Below are positions 8,472 through 54,585 of a stretch of DNA of 64,000 bases, in pieces (positions within the stretch are counted from its first letter, which is position 1; each line of letters starts with the position of its first letter). The notes beneath the pieces were generated by a model. It saw nothing but the letters and a program-made list of their open reading frames with translations. It did no database searches and was not told the origin of the DNA. A program made the translations under genes and the position numbers. Source of the stretch: Candidatus Multivoradales bacterium (GTDB lineage Bacteria; Acidobacteriota; Thermoanaerobaculia; Multivoradales; JAHEKO01); NCBI GenBank assembly GCA_965223855.1, contig CBDCXM010000002.1:1-64000 (forward strand). Reading direction: 5' to 3'.

Positions 8472-8534
8472 GGCGCGGATTCTGCCACAGCGCCAAGACG
8501 CCCGGAACCCTCCCGGGGAGGCTCGTCGGGGGTG

Positions 8535-9305: not shown

Positions 9306-9397
9306 GGAGCAGCCTCCGGTGACGGTCGGCGATTCCGGCGAAAGAGTCGTGCCGGGTGGACTGGTTTTCGCGAAGCCGCGCAGTAGGATAGCGCGTC

Positions 9398-10189: not shown

Positions 10190-10199
10190 GCTTCGAGTC

Positions 10200-21574: not shown

Positions 21575-22489
21575 CTATCCCGCTCTCGCCGTCGCCGGCT
21601 GATAGCTCATTGGGCGGAAGCACCCCTCGGGGAACTGGACCGTGAGGCCCCGTCGAAAGTCTCTTGAAGCTTGCCGGTATTCGAGGACGAACCACCGGTA
21701 CGCCTCCTCGAGAGTGCGCCGCATCCTTGCGTCAATCGCGTGGAAACGGGGTGCAGACGATCGCTCGAAGACCTCAGGTCTATCGTGTGGATGCTGCGCG
21801 AGGATCGCCCTGCGACCGAGAACGGACCTTCCTGTGGCCTCGTGCGCTTCCTCGATGGCTCTGACCATCTCGCGTACCCGTTCACAGCGCTCATGCTTGT
21901 CGAGGTGATCCCAGGACGGGATCGGCGTCAGTTCGAGGCGATGCCTCGAGGAGAAGCGAGCGGAGGAATCGCTTCTGCCACGTCGACGGGCGCGGTACTG
22001 CTCAGAGCGGTCGATCCACTCGCCTTCTATAGGCTCGCCTGACAGCAGAGCGTGAGTGCTCGTGGCCCCAGGCCAGTGACGAGGCGAAGCGACCAGCCGC
22101 TCCTTGACGCCCTGTCCGAGAAGGTAGCGCAGCCGACGCTCTTCGTCCTCAACGCCTTGGTGAACGGTGATGCCGGCATATCGACGGCCCCAGAAGCGTT
22201 CGCTCCAGTCATGCAGCCTCCCCAGCTCGCGGGCGATGTTCGAGTTCACGTAGCCCATGAAGGCGGCCATCTGCTGGACGTCGGTAGGCCTCAACAACAG
22301 GTGGGCGTGGTTGGATAGATAGACGAAACCGCACACCCGCATTCCGTACATCGCCTGGGCGCGAGCGAGCACACCGATGGTGCGATCGCGCGCCTTGGCC
22401 GAGGGTCGCAGGAGGTAGCGGCCCTGCAGCGTGCGAACGGTGATCTCTACGAGAGCTTCTTCGGGTAGGTAGCGCAGCTTCCTTGACAT
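21575..22489 (-). mobile_element. REP-associated tyrosine transposase (RAYT, Y1/HUH family)
   Basis: T-x-R-T motif, YLSNHAHLL (HUH), FWGRRY, Y and W-P-G-x-T-S motifs; codon usage visibly less GC3-biased than neighbours. Confidence 0.85.
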
Positions 22490-22688: not shown

Positions 22689-24377
22689 CTACATCTTCGA
22701 GTAGTTGGGACCCCCGCCTCCTTCGGGCGTGACCCAGTCGATCACCTGGTAGGGGTCCATGATGTCGCAGGTCTTGCAGTGGACGCAGTTCGAGAAGTTG
22801 ATCTGCAGCCGCCGGCCGGTGGGGGATTCCTTGTCATCCACCATTTCGTAGACGTTGGCGGGGCAGAAGCGCTCGCACGGATTGCCGTACTGCGTCGCGC
22901 ACTGGTAGAGGCAGAGGTCGGTGTCGTGCACGACCAGGTGTGCCGGCTGGTCTTCGTCGTGGGCAGCGCCGGAGTTGTAGACGTTGGCCAGCTTGTCGAA
23001 CGTCAACTCGCCGTCGAAAGTGACCGGCTCAGGGCGCTCCACCCGGCTGCCCGGGTCGTCGAGGCGCACCATCCGCTCGTGGCCCGGGTGACTGGGCAGG
23101 CGGTCGAAGATCCCCCAGCCGCGGCCGTTGGTGAGCATGCCCAGACCCGCCTGGAGCATGCCGCCCAAGATTCCCTTGTCGAACGCCTGGTGGAAGTTGC
23201 GCACCGGCCACATCTCTTCGCGGATCCACGAACGGTCGATACGCTCGCGGTAGCCGGCGAGGTGCTCCTTCGTCACCTCCCCCTCCTTGAGACCGTCGAA
23301 GATCGTCTCCGCGGCGAGCATGCCGCTCTTCATCGCCAGGTGGATTCCCTTGAGGCGCTGGGAGTTGAGGAAGCCGCCCGAGTCGCCGGTCAGCAGAAAG
23401 CCGTCGCCGTGAAGGCGTGGCATCGACCACCATCCGCCCTCGGGAATCGCCTTGGCGCCGTAGTAGGCCATCTTCCCGCCTTCGAGCATCCCCGCGATCC
23501 GCGGGTTGGTCTTGAAGCGCTGGAACTCGGCATGCGGATCCAGCCACGGGTTGCGGTAGTCGAGCCCGACGACCAGGCCGACGATCAGCAGGTCGGCCTC
23601 CATGCCGTAGACGAAGCCGCCACCGAAGGTCGAACGGTCGAGCGGCCAGCCCATGGTGTGGATCACGCTGCCGGGCGTGACCCGACCGGCAGGGAGCTCC
23701 CACACCTCCTTGATACCGATGGCATAGACCTGAGGGTTGCTCTCTTCGGCGAGACCGAGCTGCCCCTCGAGCTGCTTGGCGAGGGTGCCGCGCGGGCCCT
23801 CGCCGAGGACCGTGACCGGAGCGTGAATGTCGACCCCCGGCTCGAAGTTCGCCTTCCGGTTGCCGTCGTGGTCGATGCCGCGGTCTCCGGTACGGACCCC
23901 GATCACCCTTTCGCCCGCGGTGAGCACCTTCGCGGCCGGGAACTCACAAAAGATGTCGACCCCCACGTCCTCGACCTGCGGCGCCATCCATTTGAGCAGT
24001 CGGCCGAGCGAAGCGACGTACTTGCCGTCGTTCTCGAGCATCGGCGGGATCGGCATGTTGAAGGCGCGCTCCGGCGTGAACCACAGGAGCTCCTCTTCAG
24101 TGACCGCCCCCTCGAACGGCGCCTCCCGCCAGTTGCGGGGCATCAGCTCGCGAAAGGCCCGAGGATCGACGACGGCGCCGGAGATGGCGTGACTGCCGAT
24201 CTCCTTGCCCTTTTCGAGCACCGCGATCGCCGGCTCGAGTCGTCCGTTGCCGGCCTGCACGGACGAGTTGTGCGCCTCGATCAGCTTGCCGAGATGGTAG
24301 GCGCCGGCGAGGCTCGCCGGCCCCGCTCCCACGAACACGACGTCGAGGTCGAGGACCTCGCGCTCTACGTCACTCAT
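22689..24377 (-). CDS. Electron transfer flavoprotein-ubiquinone/menaquinone oxidoreductase
   Basis: VGAGPASL, EKGKEIGSHAISGA, AKAIPEGG, KGIHLAMKSG, CERFCPANVYE and NCVHCKTCDIMDP motifs. Confidence 0.93.
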   Translation of the reverse strand: MSDVEREVLDLDVVFVGAGPASLAGAYHLGKLIEAHNSSVQAGNGRLEPAIAVLEKGKEIGSHAISGAVVDPRAFRELMPRNWREAPFEGAVTEEELLWFTPERAFNMPIPPMLENDGKYVASLGRLLKWMAPQVEDVGVDIFCEFPAAKVLTAGERVIGVRTGDRGIDHDGNRKANFEPGVDIHAPVTVLGEGPRGTLAKQLEGQLGLAEESNPQVYAIGIKEVWELPAGRVTPGSVIHTMGWPLDRSTFGGGFVYGMEADLLIVGLVVGLDYRNPWLDPHAEFQRFKTNPRIAGMLEGGKMAYYGAKAIPEGGWWSMPRLHGDGFLLTGDSGGFLNSQRLKGIHLAMKSGMLAAETIFDGLKEGEVTKEHLAGYRERIDRSWIREEMWPVRNFHQAFDKGILGGMLQAGLGMLTNGRGWGIFDRLPSHPGHERMVRLDDPGSRVERPEPVTFDGELTFDKLANVYNSGAAHDEDQPAHLVVHDTDLCLYQCATQYGNPCERFCPANVYEMVDDKESPTGRRLQINFSNCVHCKTCDIMDPYQVIDWVTPEGGGGPNYSKM

Positions 24378-24512: not shown

Positions 24513-24998
24513 TCAGCTGTCGTTGCAGGTCTCGGCGGTCAGGTTGTTGAACGTCACCTGGTCGGCCCGCGCCACCGTCACAGCCTGGGCCGGACTCGTC
24601 GTCACCTGTGCGCAGGAGCAGACGATCGTCGGTCCGGTCTCGGTCACGGTGACGACGATGTCACTGCCGTCGCTGGTCACCGAATCGACCGCGATCTCGT
24701 AGCAGTCGTCCGGCTGCTCGCCGGAGCCCACGACCAGCACCATGGTGTTGTCGAAATTGACCGTCGGCGGGTCGGGGGGCTCGTCGTCCAGACTGTAGAG
24801 CTCGTCCCAGACGGCGTTGAGAGCGTCGTTGGTTCGCACCACCTGGCGGGTCTGCGACTCGAGCCCGGACATGGGCAGGTAGGCGATCTCGGTGAAGGAG
24901 AGCTGACCCTGGGGCAGAGTCGGGCTCTCGGGCGGATCGCCGTCGCAGCCGGGGCTTGCCAGGACCAGCAGCAGGGGAAGCAGGAAGAGTCGGCGCAT
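24513..24998 (-). CDS. Lipoprotein with PrcB C-terminal-like domain
   Basis: Lipobox-like SPG-C; PTVNF..MVLVV..GEQP...Y.I and CAQVTTSP patterns. Confidence 0.6.
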   Translation of the reverse strand: MRRLFLLPLLLVLASPGCDGDPPESPTLPQGQLSFTEIAYLPMSGLESQTRQVVRTNDALNAVWDELYSLDDEPPDPPTVNFDNTMVLVVGSGEQPDDCYEIAVDSVTSDGSDIVVTVTETGPTIVCSCAQVTTSPAQAVTVARADQVTFNNLTAETCNDS

Positions 24999-25117: not shown

Positions 25118-27025
25118 CTACCCTGAATGGCAGGCCTCGCAGGCGATCGGTGTGCCCGCGAAACGCCTGGCACCTGACGAGGACTCGGCGTGGCAGGCGG
25201 CGCACTCGGCTCTGCCGTGAGCGCCGGTGAGCGGGAACCTCGTGACGGCGTGGTCGAAGCTCACTTCGCCCCAGCCGTCGCTTCGATGGCACGAGGCGCA
25301 CCCGGCCTCGCGTCCGGCGAACTGGCCGTCGTGCGGGTCGTCGTGGCAACTCTCGCAGGCCGGGTCGACCGATAGCGCGAGGCGCAGGTCCGCGCTGCCC
25401 GCCGGCCTCGGACCGCGCGTTTCGAGGTGGCAATCGAGGCAGGCGGCTTCGGCATGCATCCCTTCCAGGGGGAAGCGGGTCGAGCCGTGGTCGAACGTGA
25501 GGAGTTCCCAGCCGTCGTTACCGTGGCACGAGGCGCAGCCACGCTCCGCCACGCGAGCCGTGCCGTCGTGGGGGTCCTCGTGGCAGCTCTCACACGAGAG
25601 ATCCTCGAACTGGAAGCGGCGGGTCGAGGCGAGGGCGCCGGCATTGGAGCGGAAGGTCGTCTCCCGGTGGCAGTCGGCGCAGGCGACCGCCTGATGGCGA
25701 CCCTCGAGTGCGAAGCCGGTCTGCTGGTGGTCGGCGAGCTCGAAGAGCGACGGGACGAATCCCTCGACGGTGTGGCACGAGGCACAGCTTCCGCCGTCGG
25801 CCCGTCGCCGGAACTGTCCGAGGTGCTCGTCCTCGTGGCAGGTCTCGCACCGCTCGGCGCCGGGGATGCGAAGCGGCTGACCGGGCCGGTGACACGACTC
25901 ACAGTCGACGGTTGCGTGAGCCCCGTCCAGCGGAAAGTCGGTCTGCGCGTGATCGAAGCGGTCGGCGGCGACGCGGTTCCAGCCGCGGGTGTCGTGGCAG
26001 TCGGCGCAGGCGGCCCCGAGCCGGCCTTCGTGGGGATCGCCGTGACAGTCGCTGCAGGCGGCGAAGACGACACCGCGGAACCGCTGCGGGTCTCCGCCGC
26101 TCGTGGCGGCCGCGGCGCCGTGGCACTCTGCGCAGCCGACCTGCCGGTGGCGGCCGGTGAGGGGGAAGCGAGTCCGGGCGTGATCGAAGCCCGGTGTCGA
26201 CTGCCAGGAATCGGTCGAGTGGCAGTCGGAGCAGGAGGGGCCCAGACCGCCTCGATGAGGGTCGGAGTGACAGGCGGCGCACTGCGCATGCTCCACCGGC
26301 CGGAAGCGCGTCACCGGTCCGCCTGCCGTCTCTTCGACCGCGTGACAGCGATCGCACTCGACGCGGGTGTGGGCCCCCGTCAAGGCGAAGGCCGCGCCCG
26401 AGTGGTCGAACGAGTCGGCGCCGGCGAAGGAGTCCATGCCGTGACAGGAGCTGCAGACGCGGCCCTCGAACTGCCCACGGTGCTCGTCCTCGTGGCAGGA
26501 AGCGCAACTCGCCGAGAGACCCAGCAGGGTCTTCTCGAGGGAGCGTCCGACGGCTCGCAGCGCGTCGGCGTCGGCGATGTTTTCCGGCCGATGGCAGGTC
26601 TGGCACTCGAGCGAGCCGTGGGCCCCCTCGAGCGGCCAGCCGGCCCGCGCATGATCGAAGGCATCTCTGCCCTCCGGCCCCCACCAGATGAGCTCGTACT
26701 CGCGCCCGTGGTGCTCGATGTGGCAGGTTCGGCACTCCTGGAAGCCGGGGTTGGCGTGGAGGCCACGGCCCGCCTCGATCCGCGCTTCGAGTACCTGGTG
26801 GCAGCTCAGACAGCGGTCCGCGTCGACTCCCTCTTCACGCGAATGACACTGCAGGCAGTTGCGACTGCCCTCGAGCTGCTCGTGGACGGCGCTGAGTTTG
26901 CCGGGCGAGATCTGTGCCTTGCTCGGCGAAGCGGCGGAAATGAGGGAGACGAGGAGCAGCGTCGCCGCGGCGAGAAGACTGGCTGCCGCCGGACGGGCTC
27001 TCCCCGGCGCGTCAGCCGAAGCCAT
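25118..27025 (-). CDS. Periplasmic multiheme cytochrome c (23 CxxCH)
   Basis: Signal peptide (SKA-QISPGKLS); 23 CxxCH counted by hand; repeated FDHxxxxFPLxGxH units. Confidence 0.93.
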   Translation of the reverse strand: MASADAPGRARPAAASLLAAATLLLVSLISAASPSKAQISPGKLSAVHEQLEGSRNCLQCHSREEGVDADRCLSCHQVLEARIEAGRGLHANPGFQECRTCHIEHHGREYELIWWGPEGRDAFDHARAGWPLEGAHGSLECQTCHRPENIADADALRAVGRSLEKTLLGLSASCASCHEDEHRGQFEGRVCSSCHGMDSFAGADSFDHSGAAFALTGAHTRVECDRCHAVEETAGGPVTRFRPVEHAQCAACHSDPHRGGLGPSCSDCHSTDSWQSTPGFDHARTRFPLTGRHRQVGCAECHGAAAATSGGDPQRFRGVVFAACSDCHGDPHEGRLGAACADCHDTRGWNRVAADRFDHAQTDFPLDGAHATVDCESCHRPGQPLRIPGAERCETCHEDEHLGQFRRRADGGSCASCHTVEGFVPSLFELADHQQTGFALEGRHQAVACADCHRETTFRSNAGALASTRRFQFEDLSCESCHEDPHDGTARVAERGCASCHGNDGWELLTFDHGSTRFPLEGMHAEAACLDCHLETRGPRPAGSADLRLALSVDPACESCHDDPHDGQFAGREAGCASCHRSDGWGEVSFDHAVTRFPLTGAHGRAECAACHAESSSGARRFAGTPIACEACHSG

Positions 27026-27920
27026 ACCCGGTCAGGGTGGCCACCGCGATGTGGATGGTGGCGAACAGGTACATCAGGATCGCGAACGGCTTGTGCAGCA
27101 CGTGCCAGTAGTGAAAGAGCTCCTGGAGCTTCGACCACAGGCGGATCCGTCGCTGGAGCATCGCGCTCTCCTCCAGCAGCCGGCTCAGGTGGCGTCGATG
27201 CTCGGCCGGCACTTCGGCTACCAGCGCCCGCACCTGCCGGCGGAGCCGGATACTGCCGAACGGCAAAGACAGGAGCGTGGAGAGCAGGGAGCGCCCGCCG
27301 GAGGCGGAGTCCTTCGCCAGCTTGTCGATCCGCTCGACCACGCCTACCGGAACGGCGCGCTCGGACGACAGTTCCTCCCTGAGTCGGTCGCGATAGCTCT
27401 CGACCTCGGAGAGGGAGAGCTGATCGCCCGACTGACGGCGTGGGAATTGAAGGTAGAGATAGCGACCGAGGATGCCGCTCGTGGCGACGATCACCATCGA
27501 CCAGAAACTCAGCGCCACGATGCCGGTGACCTTGAACGAACTGTGCAGCACGATCAGGAGCGGTCCCACGACTCCACACCAGATGTGAAAGTCGAGCCAA
27601 TGGCGGAGGGTGCCGAGTTTCGACAGCAGCTTCCAACGCTTGCGCAGCGAGTAGGAAAGCATGAGCGTCATCAGCCCCATGCCGATCATCCCGTAGGTCC
27701 GGCCCAGCGAACCGCCCGGCTTGAGCTGCCAGTAGAGTTCGTGGTGGGGCCGTTCGAGGAGCGGTGTGAGGTAGTAGTCCCACCCGTAGACGGTCAGGGC
27801 GGCGAACGCCATCAGGGAAGGGACGTAGAGCGCAGCCGGCCACAGGCCCCAACGTCGGGACGCCGGGCGAACGTCTCCGTCGGGCTTGGTGGACGGGATC
27901 TGTCGGGCGATTGACTCCAT
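27012..27920 (-). CDS. His-rich integral membrane protein, ferric-reductase-like/heme b-binding candidate
   Basis: About 6 TM helices; WLDFHIWCG, IVLHSSF, FHYWHVLHKPF and IHI motifs; overlaps the start of the cytochrome gene. Confidence 0.72.
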   Translation of the reverse strand: MESIARQIPSTKPDGDVRPASRRWGLWPAALYVPSLMAFAALTVYGWDYYLTPLLERPHHELYWQLKPGGSLGRTYGMIGMGLMTLMLSYSLRKRWKLLSKLGTLRHWLDFHIWCGVVGPLLIVLHSSFKVTGIVALSFWSMVIVATSGILGRYLYLQFPRRQSGDQLSLSEVESYRDRLREELSSERAVPVGVVERIDKLAKDSASGGRSLLSTLLSLPFGSIRLRRQVRALVAEVPAEHRRHLSRLLEESAMLQRRIRLWSKLQELFHYWHVLHKPFAILMYLFATIHIAVATLTGYGFG

Positions 27921-28035
27921 TTCGACGACTCGGGCGTTGACTATCATGCGCCGAATGAACGCCACATTACCGAAGGCAGGATCCTGTCGACGCAGTCATC
28001 CCCTTGTAACCCTGCGCAGGGCACGATTCGCCGCG

Positions 28036-29964
28036 ATGAGGGGAAGGCTCGACAGATCGGCTCTGCCGGAGGTGGTGGCGAAAGCGGGAGCGCTCGTGCT
28101 CCTCGCCCTGTGTCCTCTGCAGCCCTCGTCCGCTCAGGAGGCGCCCGCCTTCGACAATCCGCACGGCGACCTCTCCGTCTCCTGCGACGAGTGCCATACG
28201 ACCGACGGCTGGAAGCCGCTCGTCGAGCCGCTCGTGTTCGATCACGCTTCGACCGGCTTCGAGCTCGACTTCGGTCATCGCACCGTCGAGTGCCTCAGCT
28301 GTCACACCGAGCTGGTGTTCGCCAACGTCGGTACCGCCTGCGCCGACTGCCACCTCGATCCTCATCAGGGGGAGTTGGGCTTCGCCTGCGAGGATTGCCA
28401 CGAGTCCTCGAGCTGGGATCCGAGAGTCGACTTCGAGCTGTTCCACGACGCCACGCTCTTCCCTCTGACCGGCGCCCACGAAGTGATCGACTGCATCGCC
28501 TGTCATTCGGAAGCGTCGCCGTTCGAGTTCCAGTTGACCCCGACGGAGTGCTTCCTCTGCCACATCGACGACTACCAGAGCGCCGAGCTCGACCATGTGG
28601 AGCTCGGCTTTCCGACGAGCTGCGAGGACTGCCACCGAACCGATGCGTGGCAGCCGGCGATGATCGACGGCGGCAACTTCGACCACGATCTGTTCTTCCC
28701 GCTGCGGGGCGCGCACGAGGTTCTCGACTGCTCCGATTGCCACATCGGAGGTTTCGGCGACACGCCCAACGAGTGCATCGGCTGCCATCTTGCCGACTAC
28801 GAGGGGGTCGACGATCCCGACCACGTGGCGCTCGGCTTTCCGACGATGTGCGAGAACTGCCACAGCACGACGACCTGGGAGGGAGCGATCGAGGTCGATC
28901 ACGAGGAGTTCTTCCCGCTCAGAGGCGTCCACGCGGTGCTCGACTGCCAGGAGTGTCACGCCGACGGTTTCGAGGGCACTCCGACCGATTGCGTCGACTG
29001 TCATCTGGACGACTACCAGGCGACCAACGACCCGAATCACGTCGAGGCCGGCTTCAGCCGCATGTGCGAGGACTGCCACAACGAGTCGAGCTGGGAAGAC
29101 GCGACCATCGACCACGACGCGTTCTTCCCGCTGACCGGCGCTCACCGTCCGCTCGACTGCGAGGCGTGCCATGCCGAGGGCTTCTCGGGTACGCCGACCG
29201 ACTGCGTCTCCTGTCACCTGGACGACTACAACGCCACCGAAGATCCCGACCATCGCGCCTCCGGCTTCCCGACGATGTGTGAGGACTGTCACTCGACCTC
29301 GAACTGGGAAGACGCGATCTTCGACCACGACTCGGTCTTCCGTCTGACGGGCGCCCACCGCGCTCTCGACTGCGAGGAGTGCCATGCCGACGGCTTCGAC
29401 GGCACGCCGCGCGACTGCGCCGGATGTCACCTCGACGACTACAACGCGACCGACGACCCCGATCATCAGGCGTCCGGTTTCCCGACGATGTGCGAGGAGT
29501 GCCACAACACCACCGACTGGGAAGACGCGGACTTCGACCACGACGCCGTCTTCCAGCTCACCGGCGCTCACCGGGCTCTCGACTGCGAGGCATGCCACGC
29601 CGAGGGCTTCGACGGCACGCCGCGTGACTGCGTCGGCTGTCACCTGGACGACTACAACCAGACCGACGATCCGGATCACGACGCCGCCGGCTTCCCGACG
29701 ATGTGCGAGGACTGCCACAACACGTCGGATTGGGACGACGCCGACTTCGACCACGACAGCCTCTTCTTCCCGATCTTCAGCGGTTCGCACGCCGGCGAGT
29801 GGGACGACTGCACCGACTGTCACGTCGATCCCGGCAATTTCGCCGTGTTCGACTGCACCGTCTGTCACGACCAGGCGGACATGGACGACGAGCACGACGA
29901 CGTCGACGACTACGTCTACAGCAGCCCCGCCTGCCTGAGCTGCCACCCGGATGGCGAGGAGTGA
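28036..29964 (+). CDS. Exported, highly acidic multiheme cytochrome c (25 CxxCH)
   Basis: Signal peptide (SSA-QEA); 25 CxxCH counted by hand; tandem 71-aa 3-heme repeats. Confidence 0.93.
   Translation: MRGRLDRSALPEVVAKAGALVLLALCPLQPSSAQEAPAFDNPHGDLSVSCDECHTTDGWKPLVEPLVFDHASTGFELDFGHRTVECLSCHTELVFANVGTACADCHLDPHQGELGFACEDCHESSSWDPRVDFELFHDATLFPLTGAHEVIDCIACHSEASPFEFQLTPTECFLCHIDDYQSAELDHVELGFPTSCEDCHRTDAWQPAMIDGGNFDHDLFFPLRGAHEVLDCSDCHIGGFGDTPNECIGCHLADYEGVDDPDHVALGFPTMCENCHSTTTWEGAIEVDHEEFFPLRGVHAVLDCQECHADGFEGTPTDCVDCHLDDYQATNDPNHVEAGFSRMCEDCHNESSWEDATIDHDAFFPLTGAHRPLDCEACHAEGFSGTPTDCVSCHLDDYNATEDPDHRASGFPTMCEDCHSTSNWEDAIFDHDSVFRLTGAHRALDCEECHADGFDGTPRDCAGCHLDDYNATDDPDHQASGFPTMCEECHNTTDWEDADFDHDAVFQLTGAHRALDCEACHAEGFDGTPRDCVGCHLDDYNQTDDPDHDAAGFPTMCEDCHNTSDWDDADFDHDSLFFPIFSGSHAGEWDDCTDCHVDPGNFAVFDCTVCHDQADMDDEHDDVDDYVYSSPACLSCHPDGEE
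28678..29760 (+). repeat. Intragenic tandem repeat, 213-bp period (about 5 units)
   Basis: Unit starts (F/V/I-D-H codons) at 28678, 28894, 29107, 29320, 29533 and 29746. Confidence 0.9.
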
Positions 29965-29968
29965 CGAC

Positions 29969-31639
29969 ATGAGCTTCCCGATCGGACGCGTCTCACTCCG
30001 CCGTGGCGTGCACGGGTTCGGATGGGCGTTGTGCGTCTTCCTGGTCGCCGCCGGCGCGCAGGCGGCGGAGTTGACCGTCGAGTACCTGAGTGCGGATCGG
30101 GTCTACGTCGATGGTGGTGCGGCGGTCGGTCTGCGCACCGGTCAGCGTCTCGAAGTCGAGCGCGACGGCCGCACCGTGGCGGTGCTCGAGGTCGCCTACG
30201 TGGCGAGGCACTCCGCCTCGTGCCGCGTCGTCGAGGCCTACGACACGGTGGTGTCGGGGGATCGGATCGAGTTCGAGCCACGGCTCGTCGCACCGCGCCC
30301 TTCGGAGGGCGACGGACGGCACCAGGGAGGCGGCGAGGTCAGCTCGACGACGGTCCCCTCGTCGAGTGCCGCGACCTCGCTCGCTGCCGCGCCGGAATAC
30401 TCGCGATCGGCTCCGGAGCCGAGGCTCACCACCTCGGTGAACGGCAGCCTGTCGGTCGACTTCGAGCAGTTCACCGACGGCAGCGAGCTCGAGCGCGACT
30501 TCGACCGGACGGCGGCTCGGGTGCGGTTGCGGGGGCGCAATCTCGGCGGCACGGCGCTGCAGCTCCGCGTCCGCGGCTCGACCCGCAGTCTCGATCGGGT
30601 CGTCAACGCCGACGGCAGGACGGAGACCTCGACGCGCGACCGTCTCTACGAGTTGACCCTGGCCTGGGAGCCGCCGGAGGGGCGCTTCTCACTGCGCCTC
30701 GGCAGGCTTCGTCTCGGCCGCTACGCCGGGGTCGGGACGCTCGACGGCGCCTATGTCGAAGGGCGCGTCGCCGGAGGATTCCACCTCGGAGCCTTCGGCG
30801 GTTCGCGCTCGGATCTCTCCGAGTTCGGCTTCGACTCGGATCGCACCAGCGTCGGCGTCACCGCCCGCTGGGCGGCCCGGCGTGAGGGCCCCCGGAAGGA
30901 GTTCCTGATCGCTGGAGTCCGGGAAGAGGGGGCGATCGACGTCTCGCGCGAGTACGTGGCGCTGCAGTCGCGCGTGGGCGGGCCGCGCTGGACCTTTTAT
31001 CAGCGTGCCGAGCTCGACCTCAACAACGGGTGGCGTGAGGAGACAGCCGCGAGCGCGACCCAGCTGTCGACGCTCTTCGTCAACCTCGTCGGTCGGATCT
31101 CGTCGCGACACCGTGTCTCCCTCTCGTACAGCCGCTTCGAGCGCTACCGGACGGAGGAGACCCGTTTCATCCCGGAGGAGCTCTTCGACGAGAACCTGCG
31201 GCAGGGTTTGCGGCTGCGCTGGACCGTCGGTGAGTCGGGCGGTTGGCAGCTCTCGCTGTCTGCCGGGACGCGCGAGCGTGACGGAGACTCCGAGAATGCG
31301 ACCTCCGCCGGCGTGGGTGTGTCGCATGCCAACCTCTTCGGGCGGCGCTGGAGCGTTGCGGTCAACGCGCTCACCTTCTCGAACGCCTTCGGCGACGGCA
31401 CGACCGGCCGCCTGAGCGTCGGCAAGCGCCTCGAGGGCGGTCATCGGCTCCGGCTCACCGCCGGCAGCCGGCTCTTCGACGATCTGCTGCTCGGTGACGA
31501 GCGGCAGACGATCTGGGTGCGCCTCGGTGCCTGGTTCGAGCTTCCCGGTGCGCTCTACGGCCGCTGCGAGCTCGAGGCCACCGAGGGCGACGAGATCGAA
31601 GGCCAGCGGGTCCTCGTCGGGTTCGGCTACCGGCTGTAG
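29969..31639 (+). CDS. Outer-membrane beta-barrel (porin) with N-terminal small beta domain
   Basis: Signal peptide (AQA-AE), alternating amphipathic beta strands, C-terminal VGFGYRL barrel signature; directly follows the cytochrome gene. Confidence 0.75.
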   Translation: MSFPIGRVSLRRGVHGFGWALCVFLVAAGAQAAELTVEYLSADRVYVDGGAAVGLRTGQRLEVERDGRTVAVLEVAYVARHSASCRVVEAYDTVVSGDRIEFEPRLVAPRPSEGDGRHQGGGEVSSTTVPSSSAATSLAAAPEYSRSAPEPRLTTSVNGSLSVDFEQFTDGSELERDFDRTAARVRLRGRNLGGTALQLRVRGSTRSLDRVVNADGRTETSTRDRLYELTLAWEPPEGRFSLRLGRLRLGRYAGVGTLDGAYVEGRVAGGFHLGAFGGSRSDLSEFGFDSDRTSVGVTARWAARREGPRKEFLIAGVREEGAIDVSREYVALQSRVGGPRWTFYQRAELDLNNGWREETAASATQLSTLFVNLVGRISSRHRVSLSYSRFERYRTEETRFIPEELFDENLRQGLRLRWTVGESGGWQLSLSAGTRERDGDSENATSAGVGVSHANLFGRRWSVAVNALTFSNAFGDGTTGRLSVGKRLEGGHRLRLTAGSRLFDDLLLGDERQTIWVRLGAWFELPGALYGRCELEATEGDEIEGQRVLVGFGYRL

Positions 31640-31641
31640 CG

Positions 31642-33018
31642 ATGCTCGGCGAATCGATGATCTGGTGGGCTCTCGCCGCCCTCCTGGTGGTGCTGGTCGT
31701 CGCGCCGTACTGGATCGCCTTCGAAAGGCGCTCCCGTTCGGCACGGGAGCGGCGGGCGGAAGCGGTCGAGCTCGGGATCGACCGACCGACGGCACAGTAC
31801 CCGTTTATCGACGCCCTCCAGTGCATCGGCTGCGGCGCCTGCGTCGACGCCTGCCCGGAGGGCGATCCGCTGGGGGTGGTCGCCGGCACCGCCGTCGTGA
31901 TCAACGGCCTGCGCTGCGTCGGCCACGGCGAGTGCGCCACGGCGTGTCCTGTCGGCGCGATCGAGATCGGTCTCGGCGACCTCGAGGGCCGCAAGGACAT
32001 CCCTCGGCTGAGCCCGAACCAGGAGACGAGCGTTCCGGGGATCTACATCGCCGGCGAGCTCGGCGGGTTGGCGCTGGTCCGCAACGCCTGCCGTCAGGGG
32101 CGCGACGCCGTGCGGTCGATCGCCGCCGCTCGGGTCGCCGGGCCGCGTTCCTCCGAGGTTCTCGACCTGGTGATCGTCGGTGCAGGGCCGTCGGGCCTGA
32201 GTGCCGCCCTCGAGGCGGAGTCTCTCGGCCTCAGGTACCGGCTGCTCGAGCGTGAGGCGAACCTGGGCGGCACCCTGCTGCACTACCCCCGGCGCAAGAT
32301 GGTGCTCACGCAGACGGTCGATCTCGGGGAGTGGGGGAGCCTCGACGGCGTCGAGTACTCGAAGGAAGACCTTCTCGACTTCTTCCAGGGAATGATCGAC
32401 CGGGCGGAGGTGGCGGTCGAGTTCAGCAGCCCGGTCGATCGGATCGAACGCCAGGGGGCCAACTTCGAAATCGCTTCGGGCGAGCGCTCCTGGCGGTCGG
32501 AGGCGGTCCTCCTGTGCCTCGGCAGGCGCGGCACGCCTCGCAAGCTCGGAGTTCCGGGCGAGGAGCGCTCGAAGGTGATGTACCGCCTCATCGACGCCGC
32601 CTCGTACCAGGGGGAGCGGATCCTCATCGTCGGTGGCGGAGACAGCGCGGTCGAGGCGGCTCTCGGCCTCGCGGAGGCCGGCGGCAACACAGTGACCCTC
32701 TCCTACCGCAAGCCGAAGCTCTTCAGGATCAAGAAGAAGAACCAGGACCGTATCGACCGTGCGATCGCCGACGGATCGGTGCGCGCGGTATTCGACTCGA
32801 ATGTCGAGAGCATCGGCGAGACGACGGTCACCCTCGCCACGCAGGAGGGCTCGGAGACGATCGACAACGACTTCGTCTTCGTCTTCGCCGGAGGCATCCC
32901 GCCGTTCGGCTTCCTCAAGGAGATCGGTGTGAGGTTCGGTGGCGAGTCGATGACCGACCGCTCGATCGCCCCGACCCCGGCCTCGAATTCGTCTTCGGCA
33001 GGTGAGGGGGCGTCCTGA
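31642..33018 (+). CDS. Membrane-anchored 4Fe-4S dicluster / TrxR-like FAD-NAD(P)H oxidoreductase
   Basis: N-terminal TM; CIGCGACVDACP and CVGHGECATACP; GAGPSG and GGGDSAVE dinucleotide motifs. Confidence 0.9.
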   Translation: MLGESMIWWALAALLVVLVVAPYWIAFERRSRSARERRAEAVELGIDRPTAQYPFIDALQCIGCGACVDACPEGDPLGVVAGTAVVINGLRCVGHGECATACPVGAIEIGLGDLEGRKDIPRLSPNQETSVPGIYIAGELGGLALVRNACRQGRDAVRSIAAARVAGPRSSEVLDLVIVGAGPSGLSAALEAESLGLRYRLLEREANLGGTLLHYPRRKMVLTQTVDLGEWGSLDGVEYSKEDLLDFFQGMIDRAEVAVEFSSPVDRIERQGANFEIASGERSWRSEAVLLCLGRRGTPRKLGVPGEERSKVMYRLIDAASYQGERILIVGGGDSAVEAALGLAEAGGNTVTLSYRKPKLFRIKKKNQDRIDRAIADGSVRAVFDSNVESIGETTVTLATQEGSETIDNDFVFVFAGGIPPFGFLKEIGVRFGGESMTDRSIAPTPASNSSSAGEGAS

Positions 33019-33080
33019 TGGGGTGGAGCGGCATGGACAGGACCGGAGCGGGTCGCCATGGAGCGGCGAGAGAGAGGGGG

Positions 33081-33719
33081 ATGGGGCGACTCGCCTTCGT
33101 CCTCGGGCTCGTGTTCGGCGTCGCCGCTCTCGCCTTCGGATGGTGGCTTGCAGGGCGCGAGGCGGCTACGCGGGACGTGACGAACGAAGTCCCGGTGAGC
33201 GCACGTCACCCGGCGGTCGGGACGACTTCGCCCGCAACCCCGGGAGGTGGCGGAGTCGGCCGGGGCGTCGATCCGGCGACGCGGCAGCGGGAGGCGGAAC
33301 GTGCCCACCGGGCCGCCGGTCTGTCCGCCGACGCGCGGCGGCAGATCGAGGCGTGGCGCGCCGCGGGTGGCGGCGACGCCGCTCCCGTGGAACTGGCTCT
33401 TTCGCTGCTGGAGGACGAGAACTACTACCAGGCGTTCGAGATCGCGAACTCGATTCTCGCCGAGGATCCCGAGCACGTCGACGCCCGGTACGTCGTCGCC
33501 GCCGTGCGGGTGCGCATGGGGCAGCCGAGTCAGGCGTTGCCGCTCCTCGATGCGGTCCTCGAGGCGGCCCCCGACCATCTGGAGGCCGGCATCATGCGCG
33601 GCAAGGCGCTGCGCAAGGCGGGCCACGAGGATCTCGCCGCTGCGCAATGGCGCTCCGCTCTGCTCCTCGCCGGTGGGAGTCACCCCGAGATCGAGGCGCT
33701 CCTGCGCGGCGAGCTGTAG
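33081..33719 (+). CDS. Membrane-anchored tetratricopeptide repeat protein
   Basis: N-terminal TM; TPR-like helices (ILAEDPEHVDA, VLEAAPDHLEA); purine-rich RBS before ATG 33081. Confidence 0.7.
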   Translation: MGRLAFVLGLVFGVAALAFGWWLAGREAATRDVTNEVPVSARHPAVGTTSPATPGGGGVGRGVDPATRQREAERAHRAAGLSADARRQIEAWRAAGGGDAAPVELALSLLEDENYYQAFEIANSILAEDPEHVDARYVVAAVRVRMGQPSQALPLLDAVLEAAPDHLEAGIMRGKALRKAGHEDLAAAQWRSALLLAGGSHPEIEALLRGEL

Positions 33720-33743: not shown

Positions 33744-34424
33744 CTAGTCCGCGGCTTCCGCCGTGAGGCGGTAGCCGACCCCCTTGACGGTCTCGATCGT
33801 CGCCTCTCCGCGTCCGGCCTCGAGCTTCTTTCGGAGCCTGTGCACGGTGACGTCGATCACGTTGCTCAGCGGGTCGAACGAGTCGTCCCAGACGTGCTCG
33901 GCGATCGCCGCTCGCGACAACGCCGAGTCGGGATGGTGAAGGAAGTACTCGAGCAGGGCGAACTCCTTCGGTGAGAGCTCGAGCGGTGCGTCGAGGACCG
34001 TCACCCGGTGGGCCGCACGATCCATCACGATCCCGCCGACCTCGAGCTTGTGCGCCAGCTCGCGCGGTCGACGGCGGATGAGGCTGCGCACCCGGGCCAG
34101 CAGCTCCTCGATCGAGAACGGCTTGGTGAGGTAGTCGTCGGCTCCGCTGTCGAGGCCGTCGACACGGTCGGCGACCTCGGACCTACCCGTGAGCATCAGG
34201 ACCGGGGTCTGGATCTCGGCGTCGCGCCAGTTTCGCAGGAGCTCCAGCCCGGAGCCTCCCGGCAGCCCCCAGTCGAGGACGATGAGGTCGTAGTCGTTGA
34301 CGCTCGCCAGTTCGTCCGCCCGATCGACTTCGGCTGCCAGATCGACGGCATAGCTCGCCGCCTCGAGCGCCTCGCCGACGGCGGCGGCGATGATCGCCTC
34401 GTCCTCGACGACCAGCACCCTCAT
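33744..34424 (-). CDS. OmpR-family response regulator (CusR/CzcR-like)
   Basis: VEDE, LDWGLPG, GADDYLTKPF, NVIDVTVHRLRKK and TVKGVGY motifs. Confidence 0.95.
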   Translation of the reverse strand: MRVLVVEDEAIIAAAVGEALEAASYAVDLAAEVDRADELASVNDYDLIVLDWGLPGGSGLELLRNWRDAEIQTPVLMLTGRSEVADRVDGLDSGADDYLTKPFSIEELLARVRSLIRRRPRELAHKLEVGGIVMDRAAHRVTVLDAPLELSPKEFALLEYFLHHPDSALSRAAIAEHVWDDSFDPLSNVIDVTVHRLRKKLEAGRGEATIETVKGVGYRLTAEAAD

Positions 34425-36211
34425 CGCGGCCCTCGAGCCTCCGGCCGCGGGGCCAGAACTCTTGCGATCGCGCTTTCGAGCGCGTCGGCGGAGTAGGGCT
34501 TCGGCAGGAAGTTGATCGCCGATTCGTCGATGCCGCTGCGCAGGATCACGCTGTCAGTGTAGCCGGAGGCGAAGAGCACCGGCATCGAGGGAGAGATCTC
34601 GCGCACCCGATCGGCGAGTTCCCTGCCGTTGAGGCCTGGAAGGATCACGTCCGTCAACAACAGATCGAAGCGGCCGGAAGATTTCTCGAAGATGCTCAGG
34701 GCACTGCCGCCGTCGGCGGCCGCCTCGACCTCGTAGCCCATCGTTTCGAGCAGCTCGCGAGTCGATCCGCGAAGGGTCTCGTTGTCCTCGACGAGCAGGA
34801 TCGTACCCTCGTGCACCAGCGGCACCGCGGTCGCGTCCACTTCCTCGGCGGTGGTCGGGGCCACGGTGGAGCGCGGCACCAGCAGCTCGAACGTCGCTCC
34901 CTCGGCGCCTTCGACCAGTCGGACGGTGCCGCCGTGCTGGCGGGCGACCGCGTAGACCGTCGAGAGCCCGAGACCGCTGTGCCGGCTCTTGCCGCGAGTG
35001 GTGAAGAACGGCTCGAAGATCTTGTCGGCGACTTCGGCGGAGACGCCTTCTCCCGTGTCCGAGACCCGCAGTCGGACGAAGTCGCCGGCGGGAGCGCCGT
35101 CGACCGAGCTGTCGCCGGCGTTCCGCGTCTCGATCCGGATGCGACCCCCGTCGGCCATCGCGTCTCGGGCGTTGACGATCAGATTGACCAGCGCCTGCTC
35201 GATCTGGCTGACCGAGACCTCCACCGGCCAGATGCCGGGCTCCAGATCGAGCTCCATGTCGATGGTCTCGCCCACCAGCCGGTGGCTCATCTCCGAGATG
35301 CCGTGGACGATCCGGTTGAGGTCGACGACCTGCTCGACCTCCGCCTTGCCCCGGCTGAAGGCGAGCAACCGGTCGAGGAGGCTCGAGGCGCGCTTGCAGG
35401 TATCGAGGACGAGGGTCATCTTCCCGGCGAGAACCTCGTCCTCACTTTTCATCCGCACGACCTCACACTGGGCGCTGATCGCCGCGAGATAGTTGTTGAT
35501 GTCGTGCGCGAGGCCGCCGGCAAGGCTGCCGACCGCCTCCATCTTCTGAGCCTGGAGGAGCGCCGCCTCGCTGGCACGCAGTGCCGCCTCGGCCTCCTCG
35601 CGGCGTCGCTCGAATCTCCAGATCGCCGCGATCGACAGCGCGAGCAACCCGATCCACGCCAGCAGGGTGGCGGTGAAGAGGGTACGGGAGCGCTGGTGCG
35701 CCGCGTCGAGCCGCGAGAGGACGAGGTCGTCGAGGACGCGCAGTTCGTTGAGCAGAGCGTAGAAGACGCCGTCGTAGCGCACATCGATGGCGGAACCGAC
35801 ACCCACCGGTTCGCCACGGTCGAATCCGTCCAGCCGCTCCCGGGAAAGGCCCACGAACTCGTCGACCAGGGGGCGCACTCGAGCCAGTACGCCGATCGCC
35901 TCTTCATCTCCCGCGAGCGAAAAGGCGGCGCCCCCCTCTCCCTCGTCGCTCAACGCGGTCAGGATCTCGCGCGAGCGCTGCTTGTGGGTCGCGACTTCGT
36001 CGAGGTCCACGGTGTCGCCCGACACGTACTCTTCGACCCAGAGATGGAGGGTGGCGAGTCGGGTCCGCACCTCGGCGACCTGGCGGGCTGCCTCGGCATG
36101 GCGCACCACCACGCGCTCCCGCAACGAGTTGTTGACGGCGAGGAGCGCGACGCCGAGCAGTCCGAAGGCGGCCAGAAGTCCCGGCGTCCGGAAGCGGGAC
36201 AGCGGCTTCAC
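34421..36211 (-). CDS. Hybrid sensor histidine kinase with receiver domain
   Basis: Two TM helices around a helical periplasmic domain; QKMEAVGSLAGGLAHDINN, NARDAM, DTGEG, GLGLS and a REC domain; GTG start uncertain (36211-36223). Confidence 0.9.
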   Translation of the reverse strand: MKPLSRFRTPGLLAAFGLLGVALLAVNNSLRERVVVRHAEAARQVAEVRTRLATLHLWVEEYVSGDTVDLDEVATHKQRSREILTALSDEGEGGAAFSLAGDEEAIGVLARVRPLVDEFVGLSRERLDGFDRGEPVGVGSAIDVRYDGVFYALLNELRVLDDLVLSRLDAAHQRSRTLFTATLLAWIGLLALSIAAIWRFERRREEAEAALRASEAALLQAQKMEAVGSLAGGLAHDINNYLAAISAQCEVVRMKSEDEVLAGKMTLVLDTCKRASSLLDRLLAFSRGKAEVEQVVDLNRIVHGISEMSHRLVGETIDMELDLEPGIWPVEVSVSQIEQALVNLIVNARDAMADGGRIRIETRNAGDSSVDGAPAGDFVRLRVSDTGEGVSAEVADKIFEPFFTTRGKSRHSGLGLSTVYAVARQHGGTVRLVEGAEGATFELLVPRSTVAPTTAEEVDATAVPLVHEGTILLVEDNETLRGSTRELLETMGYEVEAAADGGSALSIFEKSSGRFDLLLTDVILPGLNGRELADRVREISPSMPVLFASGYTDSVILRSGIDESAINFLPKPYSADALESAIARVLAPRPEARGPR

Positions 36212-36334
36212 GAGCTGCACCACGGGAACAGAGAGGCCGCCGCGATGGCGCCGGGCTTGCACACGGTCGGTCGCATGAGAGCGCAAAGTCGATTCGAGAA
36301 CACGGAACCTGCAACAGGCTACCGGGTGCGACCG

Positions 36335-37330
36335 GTGGCGACAAGTTCGCTGCTGGGCGGCGCGGCACTCTCGATGGTCCTGGCGCTCGGGGGAATCGGG
36401 GCGCGTGCCGAAGCGGCCGACCCGGTGCCGGATCGGCTCCTGTGGCAGGAAGCGCAGAGAATGGCGATCGATCTGACGCCTGCGATCTGGCCCGGCTGGG
36501 AGGTCCCTCTGGAGACCCTGATCGTCGGAGCCGACAACGAGTACCTCGTCGCCAGTAGGCGTCGACCCGACGGCTTCGAGCCGATCGGCATCGAGGGCGG
36601 AGAGATCGCCCACGTCCGCGAGAGGGTCTTTCCTCGCGGTATGGAGGCGACGATGGCCCTCTTCGGTCCGCCGGCGACGATCGTCATCGGAACGTCGGAG
36701 GGGACGGGCCGAGAGCCGACGAGCTGGTTGCTGACCCTGCTGCACGAGCACTTCCACCAGTGGCAGATGCGCGACGGCGCGTACTTCGCCGCCGTCGAGG
36801 CGCTCGAGCTTTCGGGCGGCGACACCTCGGGGATGTGGATGCTCGAGTACCCCTTCCCTTACGGGGATCCGGAGGTGTCGAGCGCCTACGACGAGCTCTC
36901 CCGGACTCTGGCGGGCCTGGTCGATGACTCGGGGCCGGCGCCAGCCGAGCGGGTTCGCGAGTTTCTCGACGGCTACGCCGACTGGCTCGGGTCGCTCGAT
37001 GCGGCGGATCGTCGCTACGTCCGCTTCCAGCTCTGGCAGGAGGGGGTGGCTCGCTACGTCGAGCTGGCTCTGGCGCGGGAGGCGGCCGCGCGGCGGCAGC
37101 CGTCGCCGGAGGTCGCGGTACTCGACGGTTTCGAAGACTTCGCCGGTGCGGCCAGTCGCCTCGAGCAGCGGCTGTTCGAAGAGCTCGAGACTGCCGATCT
37201 GGCGGAGCATCGCAGGGGGGCCTTCTACGCCTTCGGCGCCGGGCTGGCGTTGCTGCTCGATCGGACCGAACCGCGATGGAAAGAGCGCTACGAGGAGAGT
37301 CGCTTCCGTCTCTATCCGAGCCTTCCGTGA
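36335..37330 (+). CDS. Secreted protein with gluzincin-like metallopeptidase motifs
   Basis: Signal-like N-terminus; LLHEHFHQWQ (HExxH) and downstream EGVARYVE; start uncertain (36275/36335/36374). Confidence 0.65.
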   Translation: MATSSLLGGAALSMVLALGGIGARAEAADPVPDRLLWQEAQRMAIDLTPAIWPGWEVPLETLIVGADNEYLVASRRRPDGFEPIGIEGGEIAHVRERVFPRGMEATMALFGPPATIVIGTSEGTGREPTSWLLTLLHEHFHQWQMRDGAYFAAVEALELSGGDTSGMWMLEYPFPYGDPEVSSAYDELSRTLAGLVDDSGPAPAERVREFLDGYADWLGSLDAADRRYVRFQLWQEGVARYVELALAREAAARRQPSPEVAVLDGFEDFAGAASRLEQRLFEELETADLAEHRRGAFYAFGAGLALLLDRTEPRWKERYEESRFRLYPSLP

Positions 37331-41972: not shown

Positions 41973-41977
41973 GACCG

Positions 41978-42751: not shown

Positions 42752-42761
42752 ATTGCGCGGC

Positions 42762-54227: not shown

Positions 54228-54585
54228 GGAGTTCCTCCCTGGAAGCATCCGCCATGATGGCGGAGTCCTCAGAAGAAGTACGCACCAGCGGGCGTTTTAG
54301 TTCCTGTGTGCGGCTGCGATCCGGCGATCGGCCGGGTCGACGAAAAAAGGCGAGAGGCCGTCGACCTCTCGCCTGCTTCGGGGGGAAATGAAGGAGGGTT
54401 CTGAAGCTGTTGGAGCATAGCGACAACTGCATGATCTCTCCTGTGAAGCGAGTCACAACTCCCGATCGCACCCGGCGATGCCACAGGGCCGGCGAGGGAC
54501 GGTTTGCTATGGTGCGCATGAGTTCACGCCGCCGGATGGTCCGTCCGAGAGGAGCCGGCGTTGCAGGTCCCGACGGAGGTCCCAG

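Follow-up and report, generated by a model that had tools for sequence, protein, structure and literature searches.

To our knowledge, every characterised porin-cytochrome system draws its electrons from the quinone pool. The locus described here, at positions 25118–33719 of a 64,000-nucleotide stretch of contig CBDCXM010000002.1 (assembly GCA_965223855.1, Candidatus Multivoradales bacterium, phylum Acidobacteriota; the whole stretch is referred to as the window), encodes a porin, two giant multiheme c-type cytochromes (MHCs) and an inner-membrane protein (IMP) with five transmembrane (TM) helices, all of which are components already known from other systems. It also encodes a membrane-anchored iron-sulfur (FeS) flavoprotein of the NAD(P)H-dependent type, and this partner is what sets the locus apart from an otherwise familiar set. 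The closest described system is the porin-cytochrome class PCC3, which was defined from genome sequences as the combination of a porin, an IMP and two MHCs, one extracellular (median 34 hemes) and one periplasmic (median 21 hemes) (He et al. 2017, PMC5566968). The PCC3 IMP is approximately 300 aa long and spans the membrane five times, with an SGXXG motif on TM4 and WX3HX13H motifs on TM3 and TM5; the MHCs have 22–39 aa per heme, the periplasmic one carrying about 21–27 hemes, up to 42 strands are predicted for the porins, and the hosts are Alpha-, Beta- and Gammaproteobacteria (PMC5566968). In later work PCC3 was still composed of four genes and was called 'functionally unverified' (PMC9900912; 10.1101/2025.02.27.639646), while its periplasmic cytochrome was argued to be capable of spanning the periplasm (PMC9900912).

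All of the diagnostic PCC3 features were found at the Multivoradales locus: a barrel gene clustered with MHC genes, cytochromes of 23 and 25 hemes (cyt23 and cyt25) with 27.6 and 25.7 aa per heme respectively, and a five-TM IMP of 302 aa with the exact motifs. This likeness is one of description and motif. The locus differed from PCC3 in having a fifth, strictly co-occurring protein with FeS, FAD and NAD(P) motifs, in having a barrel of about 22 strands with an additional N-terminal domain, and in belonging to hosts from the Acidobacteriota and Bacteroidota; the published model of PCC3 is linked to quinones and in most cases takes Fe(II) to be oxidised. A flavoprotein partner is not described in those parts of the PCC3 literature that were available, and the available text of the seven supplementary tables of He et al. 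(2017) contains none of the terms FAD, ferredoxin, NAD, 4Fe-4S, pyridine nucleotide or thioredoxin reductase. Literature searches found nothing that joined PCC3 with Acidobacteriota, nor Emticicia (see below) with multiheme cytochromes. The system is therefore best placed within the PCC3-type porin-cytochrome class, as a form that has gained a conserved input module of NAD(P)H-flavo-FeS type; it occurs in two phyla or more and in a single cultured strain. An initial annotation, made from the window sequence, had stated that no characterised system of this composition was known. This calls for qualification: four components match PCC3, a class that is bioinformatically defined and itself uncharacterised, and only the flavoprotein is additional.

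The presence of the flavoprotein gene followed that of the IMP gene across genomes. A scan with a barrel profile, using one genome per species, identified 33 loci, of which 32 were labelled Acidobacteriota (Thermoanaerobaculia, Holophagales and Vicinamibacteria) and one Polyangiaceae. Analysis of these loci by tblastn recovered the flavoprotein in 29 and all five core genes in 21. Loci were considered informative if they extended at least 3.5 kb upstream and at least 1.5 kb downstream of the barrel gene; among the 24 that did so, the IMP and flavoprotein genes were both present in 20 and both missing in four, with no case of one occurring alone. Of the nine loci outside this filter, one (L008) contained both genes, while the other eight began at the barrel gene, which was followed by the flavoprotein gene in every case. 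The usual order, on a single strand, was IMP, a cytochrome with 20–23 hemes, a variable cytochrome with 10–34 hemes, barrel and flavoprotein (these heme counts are approximate, since some open reading frames (ORFs) in the locus mapping were over-extended or merged), and in most loci the flavoprotein gene lay directly after the barrel gene. The divergent layout of the window is a local inversion that was peculiar to it among the loci. A tetratricopeptide (TPR) protein had also been listed in the rightward unit initially, but its gene recurred in only one of the 33 loci (L020, 73 bits) and is not a conserved member of the set.

Local variations were observed among these loci. The single locus with a Myxococcota label (L008, Polyangiaceae, CAXMQZ010000012.1) had the order cytochrome, barrel, flavoprotein, IMP and 20-heme cytochrome, and its flavoprotein had isoleucine in the second FeS motif. 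In one subclade, a Peptidase_M28 gene (seven loci) and a thioredoxin-like gene of 141 aa (four loci) were situated just upstream of the IMP gene, at 3017–4304 in L002 and at equivalent positions in L003, L005, L006 and L009.

The complete set was also found in a second phylum. When 72,556 plasmids were searched by tblastn, the IMP, flavoprotein and cyt23 occurred together in one record only, pEMTOL02 (NC_018749.1, locus L034), which belongs to the cultured bacterium Emticicia oligotrophica DSM 17448 (Bacteroidota, 34% GC, warm spring water). E. oligotrophica is an aerobic heterotroph. The plasmid annotation reads, in order, ccsA, a hypothetical protein (281 aa), an NAD(P)-binding protein (440 aa), two cytochrome c3 family proteins (635 and 1001 aa) and a hypothetical protein (538 aa), with the IMP and flavoprotein genes adjacent. 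Identity to the window proteins was 36% for the IMP, 43% for the flavoprotein, 36% for cyt23 (E = 3e-139; the ortholog likewise has 635 aa and 23 CxxCH motifs), 40% for cyt25 (40 CxxCH) and 23% for the barrel (E = 8e-11). Therefore, the recurrence of these genes elsewhere, which the initial annotation had left to be looked for, was established both by the 21 loci with all five genes and by this plasmid. The ccsA gene that directly precedes the Emticicia set (8198–11284, 1028 aa) is a fused, ccsA-type biogenesis gene, which recurred in none of the 33 loci.

Natural fusions provided a further association between the flavoprotein and the IMP. Thirteen relatives of the IMP were unusually long (717–907 aa), and in all of them the IMP domain was C-terminal. 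Three (P0378, P0382 and P0389) were complete flavoprotein-IMP fusions, being 39–42% identical to the window flavoprotein and 27–30% identical to the IMP; all three retained the N-terminal anchor, both FeS motifs (including a histidine variant described below), the GAGPAG motif and both WX3HX13H motifs. In the other ten, the partner of the IMP domain was an FeS region (PF13247/Fer4). Predicted topology placed both the C-terminus of the flavoprotein and the N-terminus of the IMP in the cytoplasm, as the order of the fusion requires. No other observation speaks as strongly as the fusions and the matching topology for a single functional unit of the two proteins, and for electrons entering or leaving the IMP at its cytoplasmic face. 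The proposal that flavoprotein and IMP form a single module was thus upheld in three ways, by their concordance in all 24 informative loci, by their adjacency in Emticicia and by their fusion in three proteins. In a further unusual database sequence (P0359, 418 aa), an N-terminal IMP half, a stretch resembling cyt23 and a C-terminal portion of the flavoprotein were combined; this is probably a chimera of assembly or gene calling.

The flavoprotein consists of a TM helix (residues 6–27), a dicluster ferredoxin domain (approximately 55–110) and an FAD/NAD(P) domain resembling TrxR and YpdA (175–440), which has two dinucleotide folds and matched Pfam Pyr_redox_3 (1.4e-42). A strongly basic stretch immediately follows the TM helix, and this places the remainder of the protein in the cytoplasm. 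Its closest relatives in the PDB were YpdA/Bdr (7a76, 2e-26) and then the TrxR-type ferredoxin-NADP reductases; however, the score against the YpdA/Bdr model TIGR04018 was 165 bits against a cut-off of 339.9, and the flavoprotein has a TM anchor and ferredoxin domain that are additional to YpdA/Bdr. Seven of its nine cysteines belong to the FeS motifs and there is no CxxC among the rest, so the protein lacks the redox-active motif of thioredoxin reductase and is not a disulfide reductase. Two [4Fe-4S] clusters had been predicted originally, and this required revision. The first motif is canonical (CxxCxxCxxxCP), but the second reads CxGHxxCxxxCP, with histidine in place of the second cysteine both in the window protein and in 22 of 24 relatives (isoleucine in the other two); to judge from the motif, the second cluster is probably [3Fe-4S] or His-ligated. 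The GxGxxG and GGGDSA motifs, and a Y-R-[RK] motif after the second Rossmann strand, were invariant or nearly so, and the last of these offers a hint of NADPH use. Neither FAD_binding_8 nor NAD_binding_6 appeared among the matches listed for the flavoprotein (25 of 27 families). A match on a Pseudoalteromonas plasmid was rejected as unrelated, being a 784-aa protein among glycosyltransferase genes. According to Atlas summaries, which serve as leads only, the flavoprotein architecture also occurs in Pseudomonadota, Myxococcota and Bacteroidota, and look-alikes of the IMP occur in Gemmatimonadota.

The IMP was modelled with high confidence by AlphaFold2 (AF2; pLDDT 91.4, pTM 0.86) as five TM helices, with an insert of four helices and approximately 100 residues between TM4 and TM5. 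The distribution of positive charge indicated that the N-terminus, the loop at 89–104 and the insert are cytoplasmic, and that the C-terminus is outside. In an alignment of 63 diverse relatives, H112 and H126 (TM3), H276 and H290 (TM5), G149, G152 and W272 were invariant, while W108 and S148 were near-invariant (at least 90%). These residues compose the motifs W108-H112-H126 and W272-H276-H290 (WX3HX13H) and S148-G149-x-x-G152 (SGXXG). One histidine pair thus lies towards each face of the membrane, an arrangement as in transmembrane di-heme b cytochromes, and the IMP is probably such a cytochrome. The protein had been described as 'His-rich'; there are in fact only 11 histidines, but four of them are invariant. 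Family assignments all fell below cut-off: DUF4405 (PF14358) scored 25.7–25.9 bits against a gathering cut-off of 26.7 and was matched by 19 of 63 family members, and Ferric_reduct (PF01794) reached 20.9 of the 28 bits required, with weak matches in 10 of 63. A few database relatives carry the DUF4405 tag. The family is large, one search giving 1818 matches and another 2776 clusters at the 50% identity level. One DUF4405 protein has been shown to bind heme b (PMC11334425).

The two cytochromes both have approximately one additional histidine per heme, with 25 histidines beyond the CxxCH motifs in each case, which is consistent with wires composed entirely of bis-His hemes. Autocorrelation of cyt25 peaked at a lag of 71, corresponding to a tri-heme repeat unit of 71 residues. 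Relatives of cyt23 that adjoin an IMP gene had 20 or 23 hemes, and cyt23 is a probable periplasm-spanning wire, the counterpart of the 'periplasmic MHC' of PCC3. Orthologs of cyt25 were far more variable, the range extending from 10 to 40 hemes when Emticicia is included, and cyt25 would correspond to the variable 'extracellular MHC', although its location relative to the barrel is a prediction. At the domain level, cyt25 matched MtrC/MtrF domain II/IV (PF22113; 55.8 bits against a cut-off of 30). The HmcA model scored 22.7 bits against a cut-off of 400, and neither cytochrome had a sequence relative in the PDB.

The gene between cyt25 and the flavoprotein had been annotated as a beta-barrel, and it does encode a large outer-membrane barrel. 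Its AF2 model (pLDDT 83.6, from a 40-sequence alignment) had about 22 strands at residues 156–555, preceded by a signal peptide, a small N-terminal beta domain (35–101) and a disordered linker (105–149). Foldseek comparison with the PDB returned outer-membrane barrels only, namely the usher pores PapC and FimD, AlgE and Occ porins (TM-scores 0.3–0.43); MtrB was absent among the matches listed (49 ranks). The barrel profile had no PDB sequence match at E ≤ 10, and the protein had no Pfam or NCBIfam match, and thus none to MtrB_PioB. All 108 of its database relatives were 'hypothetical', and those with a named organism were from Acidobacteriota.

These components were interpreted, with moderate confidence, as a five-protein electron conduit of the cell envelope that is of PCC3 type, has an extra cytoplasmic NAD(P)H flavoprotein as its input and operates outwards. 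The flavoprotein, held at the cytoplasmic face by its single TM anchor, would transfer hydride from NAD(P)H, its presumed donor, onto FAD, from where single electrons would pass through two FeS clusters, one a canonical [4Fe-4S] and the other [3Fe-4S] or His-ligated. From these, electrons would move to a cytoplasmic-side heme b (H112/H276) and then to a periplasmic-side heme b (H126/H290) of the IMP, before entering the 23-heme cytochrome, which has about 26 residues per heme and could span the periplasm. The 23-heme wire would deliver them, through or at the 22-strand barrel, to the surface-located 25-heme cytochrome, and the latter would reduce an extracellular acceptor such as Fe(III) or Mn(IV) minerals, humics or possibly O2; successive components are presumed to be in physical contact. 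For the inner step there is precedent in the reduction of the membrane heme protein MsrQ by Fre (PMC12525009) and in the heme b binding of the DUF4405 protein (PMC11334425). With NAD(P)H as the source, at about -320 mV, outward electron flow is favoured by redox potential and by the membrane potential alike. A more specific proposal, which can be made only tentatively, is that the flavoprotein and five-TM cytochrome b constitute an NAD(P)H-oxidising, quinone-independent transmembrane electron exporter, a bacterial system that would be analogous to NOX in function, though assembled from unrelated components, and that occurs also as a single fused chain, and that this is the missing inner-membrane input of PCC3-type conduits.

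Several observations weigh against such an outward, NAD(P)H-driven conduit. Four of the 33 loci (L007, L024, L028 and L030) had cytochromes and a barrel without IMP or flavoprotein, showing that the outer module can exist without this input; L024 came from the same metagenome-assembled genome (MAG) as L016, so at least one of these bare loci is a second copy. Pairwise distances among IMP, flavoprotein, barrel and cyt23 were strongly correlated (r = 0.83–0.94; 18 taxa; reached by 0 of 999 permutations); this speaks for the conduit in that it shows joint inheritance, but it shows no more, because such distances also track species relatedness. The contigs that carry the fusions are short and metagenomic, and some of the fusions may be artefacts of read-through. 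The IMP model had no structural match in the PDB, including to NOX, STEAP or cytochrome b561 (Foldseek, none at E ≤ 0.001, best 0.88), and the IMP profile had no PDB sequence relative; heme binding is for that reason argued from motifs and sub-threshold Pfam matches. An outward path driven by NAD(P)H would also dissipate proton-motive force rather than build it, which makes a respiratory role questionable. Finally, the PCC3 class of IMP has been modelled as a quinone-active cytochrome b (He et al., PMC5566968), and PCC3 has been discussed as a candidate Fe(II) oxidase, i.e., operating in the opposite direction (PMC5566968; PMC9900912).

The model of He et al. leads to the most probable alternative, which is nonetheless unlikely: the five-TM di-heme protein would pass electrons to and from the quinone pool, as they proposed for IMPs with the same motifs (PMC5566968), and the flavoprotein would be an accessory, either a second donor, a redox regulator of the b hemes or a feeder of the NAD(P)H:quinone type, which would make the system a quinol-linked conduit of conventional kind. 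Six of the 63 IMP relatives weakly matched Ni_hydr_CYTB, a family of quinone-reactive b cytochromes, and MsrQ, a membrane heme protein, binds quinone though it is reduced by the flavin reductase Fre (PMC12525009). Besides the four bare loci, the flavoprotein is missing from proteobacterial PCC3 clusters as they appear in the available published material (PMC5566968; 10.1101/2025.02.27.639646). An accessory would not account easily for the concordance of IMP and flavoprotein in 24 of 24 informative loci, nor for the 13 longer relatives, in every one of which the IMP domain was fused to cytoplasmic FeS or flavoprotein domains, as expected if the cytoplasmic partner were the main redox input.

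The same wiring could serve a purpose other than respiration, as a redox-balancing or assimilatory surface reductase that acts on Fe(III) for iron uptake, or produces superoxide from extracellular O2 in the manner of NOX; as a distinct explanation this was judged unlikely. The complete set is present on the plasmid of an aerobic heterotroph, and an outward path from NAD(P)H conserves no energy by itself, so that, with Emticicia as a host in particular, redox balancing or surface reduction outside respiration is no less plausible than mineral respiration. However, wires of 23–40 hemes with a dedicated barrel are a costly means of assimilatory iron reduction, and iron-uptake genes were neither found beside the cluster in the window nor recurrent among the loci.

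Electron uptake, with Fe(II), Mn(II) or a cathode as the source and with the flavoprotein reducing NAD(P)+ for biosynthesis, was considered very improbable. Inward flow from Fe(II) to NAD(P)+ runs against the membrane potential and is strongly uphill, which makes this direction unlikely on bioenergetic grounds. No proton-coupled element was evident in the five-TM bis-His protein, and the hosts are Acidobacteriota MAGs and an aerobic heterotroph with a plasmid, rather than known lithotrophs. In favour of uptake, PCC3 itself is present in Fe(II) oxidisers and its inner-membrane gene was upregulated in the iron-oxidising Sideroxydans CL21 (10.1101/2025.02.27.639646). The TrxR-type ferredoxin-NADP reductases, which among solved structures come next after YpdA, also work both ways.

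Least probable, by a small margin, is that IMP and flavoprotein lie outside the working path and give periplasmic reducing power for the assembly of heme-rich cytochromes: the ccsA gene directly before the Emticicia set and the thioredoxin-like gene that lies upstream of the gene for the IMP in four loci would fit, but ccsA recurred in none of the 33 loci, the IMP gene is translationally coupled to that of the 20–23-heme cytochrome, barrel-less IMP-cytochrome-flavoprotein modules exist, and known maturation pathways pass reductant through thiol-disulfide carriers and not b hemes.

The outward conduit with an NAD(P)H input was also compared with other systems that couple membrane cytochromes to soluble or surface partners. 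In PCC4 subgroup II, an FeS gene (pfam13247) is located upstream of the IMP gene and was once annotated together with it as one gene, and He et al. (PMC5566968, Table S6) also recorded triads of MHC, IMP and 'other redox protein', with redox proteins of 412–425 aa beside IMPs in Dechloromonas, Gallionella ES-2 and Leptothrix. These resemble the present locus in that a five-TM HX13H protein is paired with, or was annotated as fused to, a redox protein of cytoplasmic type, and ten of the 13 long IMP relatives have the same FeS(PF13247)-IMP arrangement. The 412–425 aa proteins may be relatives of the flavoprotein; their nature is not stated in the available text and tables of He et al. PCC4 differs in that its periplasmic cytochromes have 4, 5 or 10 hemes and, in the available description, there is no extracellular MHC (PMC5566968). 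An extra module without a barrel, comprising IMP, cytochrome (8–12 CxxCH) and flavoprotein, was observed at one locus (L022, 3–4014) directly upstream of a full five-gene cluster; it resembles the MHC-IMP-redox triads of Table S6.

The likeness to MtrCAB and to Geobacter Pcc lies in the common logic of periplasmic MHC, barrel and surface MHC, together with the MtrC/MtrF domain match in cyt25. Comparison with MtrAB, as first suggested, showed no further likeness: the porin had no MtrB/PioB-family match in Pfam or NCBIfam, cyt23 scored 33.9 bits against the DmsE/MtrA model TIGR03508 (cut-off 192.2), and the cytochromes here have 23 and 25 hemes as opposed to 10 or 8–12. The input to those systems is through the quinol dehydrogenases CymA, ImcH and CbcL, and searches of Pfam and NCBIfam gave no match to CymA/NapC-, ImcH- or CbcL-type families in any of the six proteins of the locus, in agreement with the original observation that no such enzyme is recognisable.

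That the module was 'NOX/ferric-reductase-like' could be sustained for motif geometry but not for homology. The H112/H126 and H276/H290 pairs are carried by two TM helices, and H-x13-H pairs are likewise found on two helices in the FRD family (PMC5566968); the split MsrQ-Fre system is of NOX/FRD type (PMC12525009). As in those systems, the electron path proposed here would run from a cytoplasmic NAD(P)H flavoenzyme to a membrane bis-His heme b protein and on to an acceptor across the membrane. However, the IMP has five helices and not six, its match to Ferric_reduct is sub-threshold and it has no PDB match, the dehydrogenase is TrxR/YpdA-like with an FeS relay and is neither an FNR-like FAD/NADPH domain nor a free flavin reductase, and electrons would be accepted by a multiheme wire. 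The resemblance extends to function only. In the Hmc and Tmc complexes of sulfate reducers, membrane subunits of b type link a periplasmic many-heme cytochrome to a cytoplasmic FeS protein, and quinone chemistry is not obligatory; this wiring is similar to that proposed here, but the subunit families are different and there is no outer-membrane module. The cytochrome and beta-barrel clusters reported from Thermoanaerobaculia by Flieder et al. (PMC8528874) were considered as the same system and rejected on composition, since as described in the available text they consist of MHCs, an NHL-repeat protein, a PPIase-like protein and hypothetical barrels, without flavoprotein or five-TM protein.

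A co-inherited, sometimes fused, cytoplasm-facing flavoprotein supplies a testable answer to the question of what the IMPs of PCC3 and PCC4 do and in which direction, i.e., NAD(P)H in and electrons out. If correct, this would represent a new route of extracellular electron transfer and would change how PCC3 markers are read in environmental surveys of iron cycling; it would also provide a compact NAD(P)H-to-electrode module for bioelectrochemistry. Should the exporter proposal hold, PCC3 would be a reductive system and not an iron oxidase, and a widespread class comprising the acidobacterial and Bacteroidota sets, and perhaps the proteobacterial PCC3, PCC4 and MHC-IMP-redox triads, would move cytoplasmic reducing power directly to the cell surface. 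E. oligotrophica DSM 17448 is a cultured, non-pathogenic host in which the whole set is carried on a plasmid.

The organisation of the locus is given in Table 1. All six ORFs were confirmed, with G-C content at third codon positions (GC3) of 0.83–0.89, typical of coding sequence, in a window of approximately 69% GC. The coordinates, overlaps and CxxCH counts bear out the two divergent, tightly coupled units and the heme numbers that were initially described. On the minus strand the stop codon of the IMP gene overlaps the start of cyt23 by 14 nt, and on the plus strand the gaps are 4 nt between cyt25 and barrel and 2 nt between barrel and flavoprotein. The flavoprotein stop overlaps the TPR start, so these genes are translationally coupled in the window. 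A simple scan of the divergent intergenic region identified neither a sigma-70-like nor a terminator-like site, and an Rfam scan identified no family anywhere in the 64-kb window.

Table 1. Features of the PCC3-type locus, with positions in the window.
Feature	Position	Strand	Evidence or remark
cyt23: 23-heme c-type cytochrome, Sec signal peptide	25118..27025	-	635 aa, 23 CxxCH; Pfam Cytochrome_C7, c3_2, CIII
IMP: 5-TM inner-membrane protein, 302 aa	27012..27920	-	ORF open to 27965; probable start 27920
Divergent intergenic region, ~115 bp, separating the two transcription units	27921..28035	.	From start-codon placement
cyt25: 25-heme c-type cytochrome, signal peptide, 642 aa	28036..29964	+	Mechanical ORF from 27886; probable start 28036
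Outer-membrane beta-barrel, 556 aa	29969..31639	+	AF2 model, Foldseek
Membrane-anchored flavo-iron-sulfur protein, 458 aa	31642..33018	+	Pfam Pyr_redox_3, Fer4 families; motifs
TPR protein, N-terminal hydrophobic segment	33018..33719	+	Pfam TPR_19 and others

The surroundings of the locus were as follows. Just downstream of cyt23, and on the same strand, are genes for an ETF-ubiquinone oxidoreductase (22689–24377, minus strand) and a PrcB_C-domain protein (24513–24998, minus strand), which recurred in none of the 33 loci. An ORF at 21575–22489 (minus strand) had a lower GC3 (0.73) and scored 39 bits, below the cut-off of 80, as a REP-associated tyrosine transposase. Genes of the ccm or ccs type, for cytochrome c maturation, were not detected in the window (Pfam, E ≤ 1e-5). 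On the other side, an OmpR-type response regulator (33744–34424, minus strand) and a hybrid histidine kinase (34421–37210, minus strand) are convergent with the TPR gene; this pair, which had only weak and scattered matches in other loci (L015, L024, L032 and L033), is possibly a local regulator. It is followed by an ordinary chromosomal context at 37429–45497 (plus strand), consisting of an aroD/aroE-like fusion, trpE, trpD, trpC, trpB and trpA. Further downstream, at 54478–56250 and 56359–58002 (both plus strand), are two adjacent paralogous genes for secreted proteins of 590 and 547 aa, which had no Pfam or NCBIfam match and have in common a C-terminal motif of the form TGDYVG.QTDPLDD.GFW.TGE.

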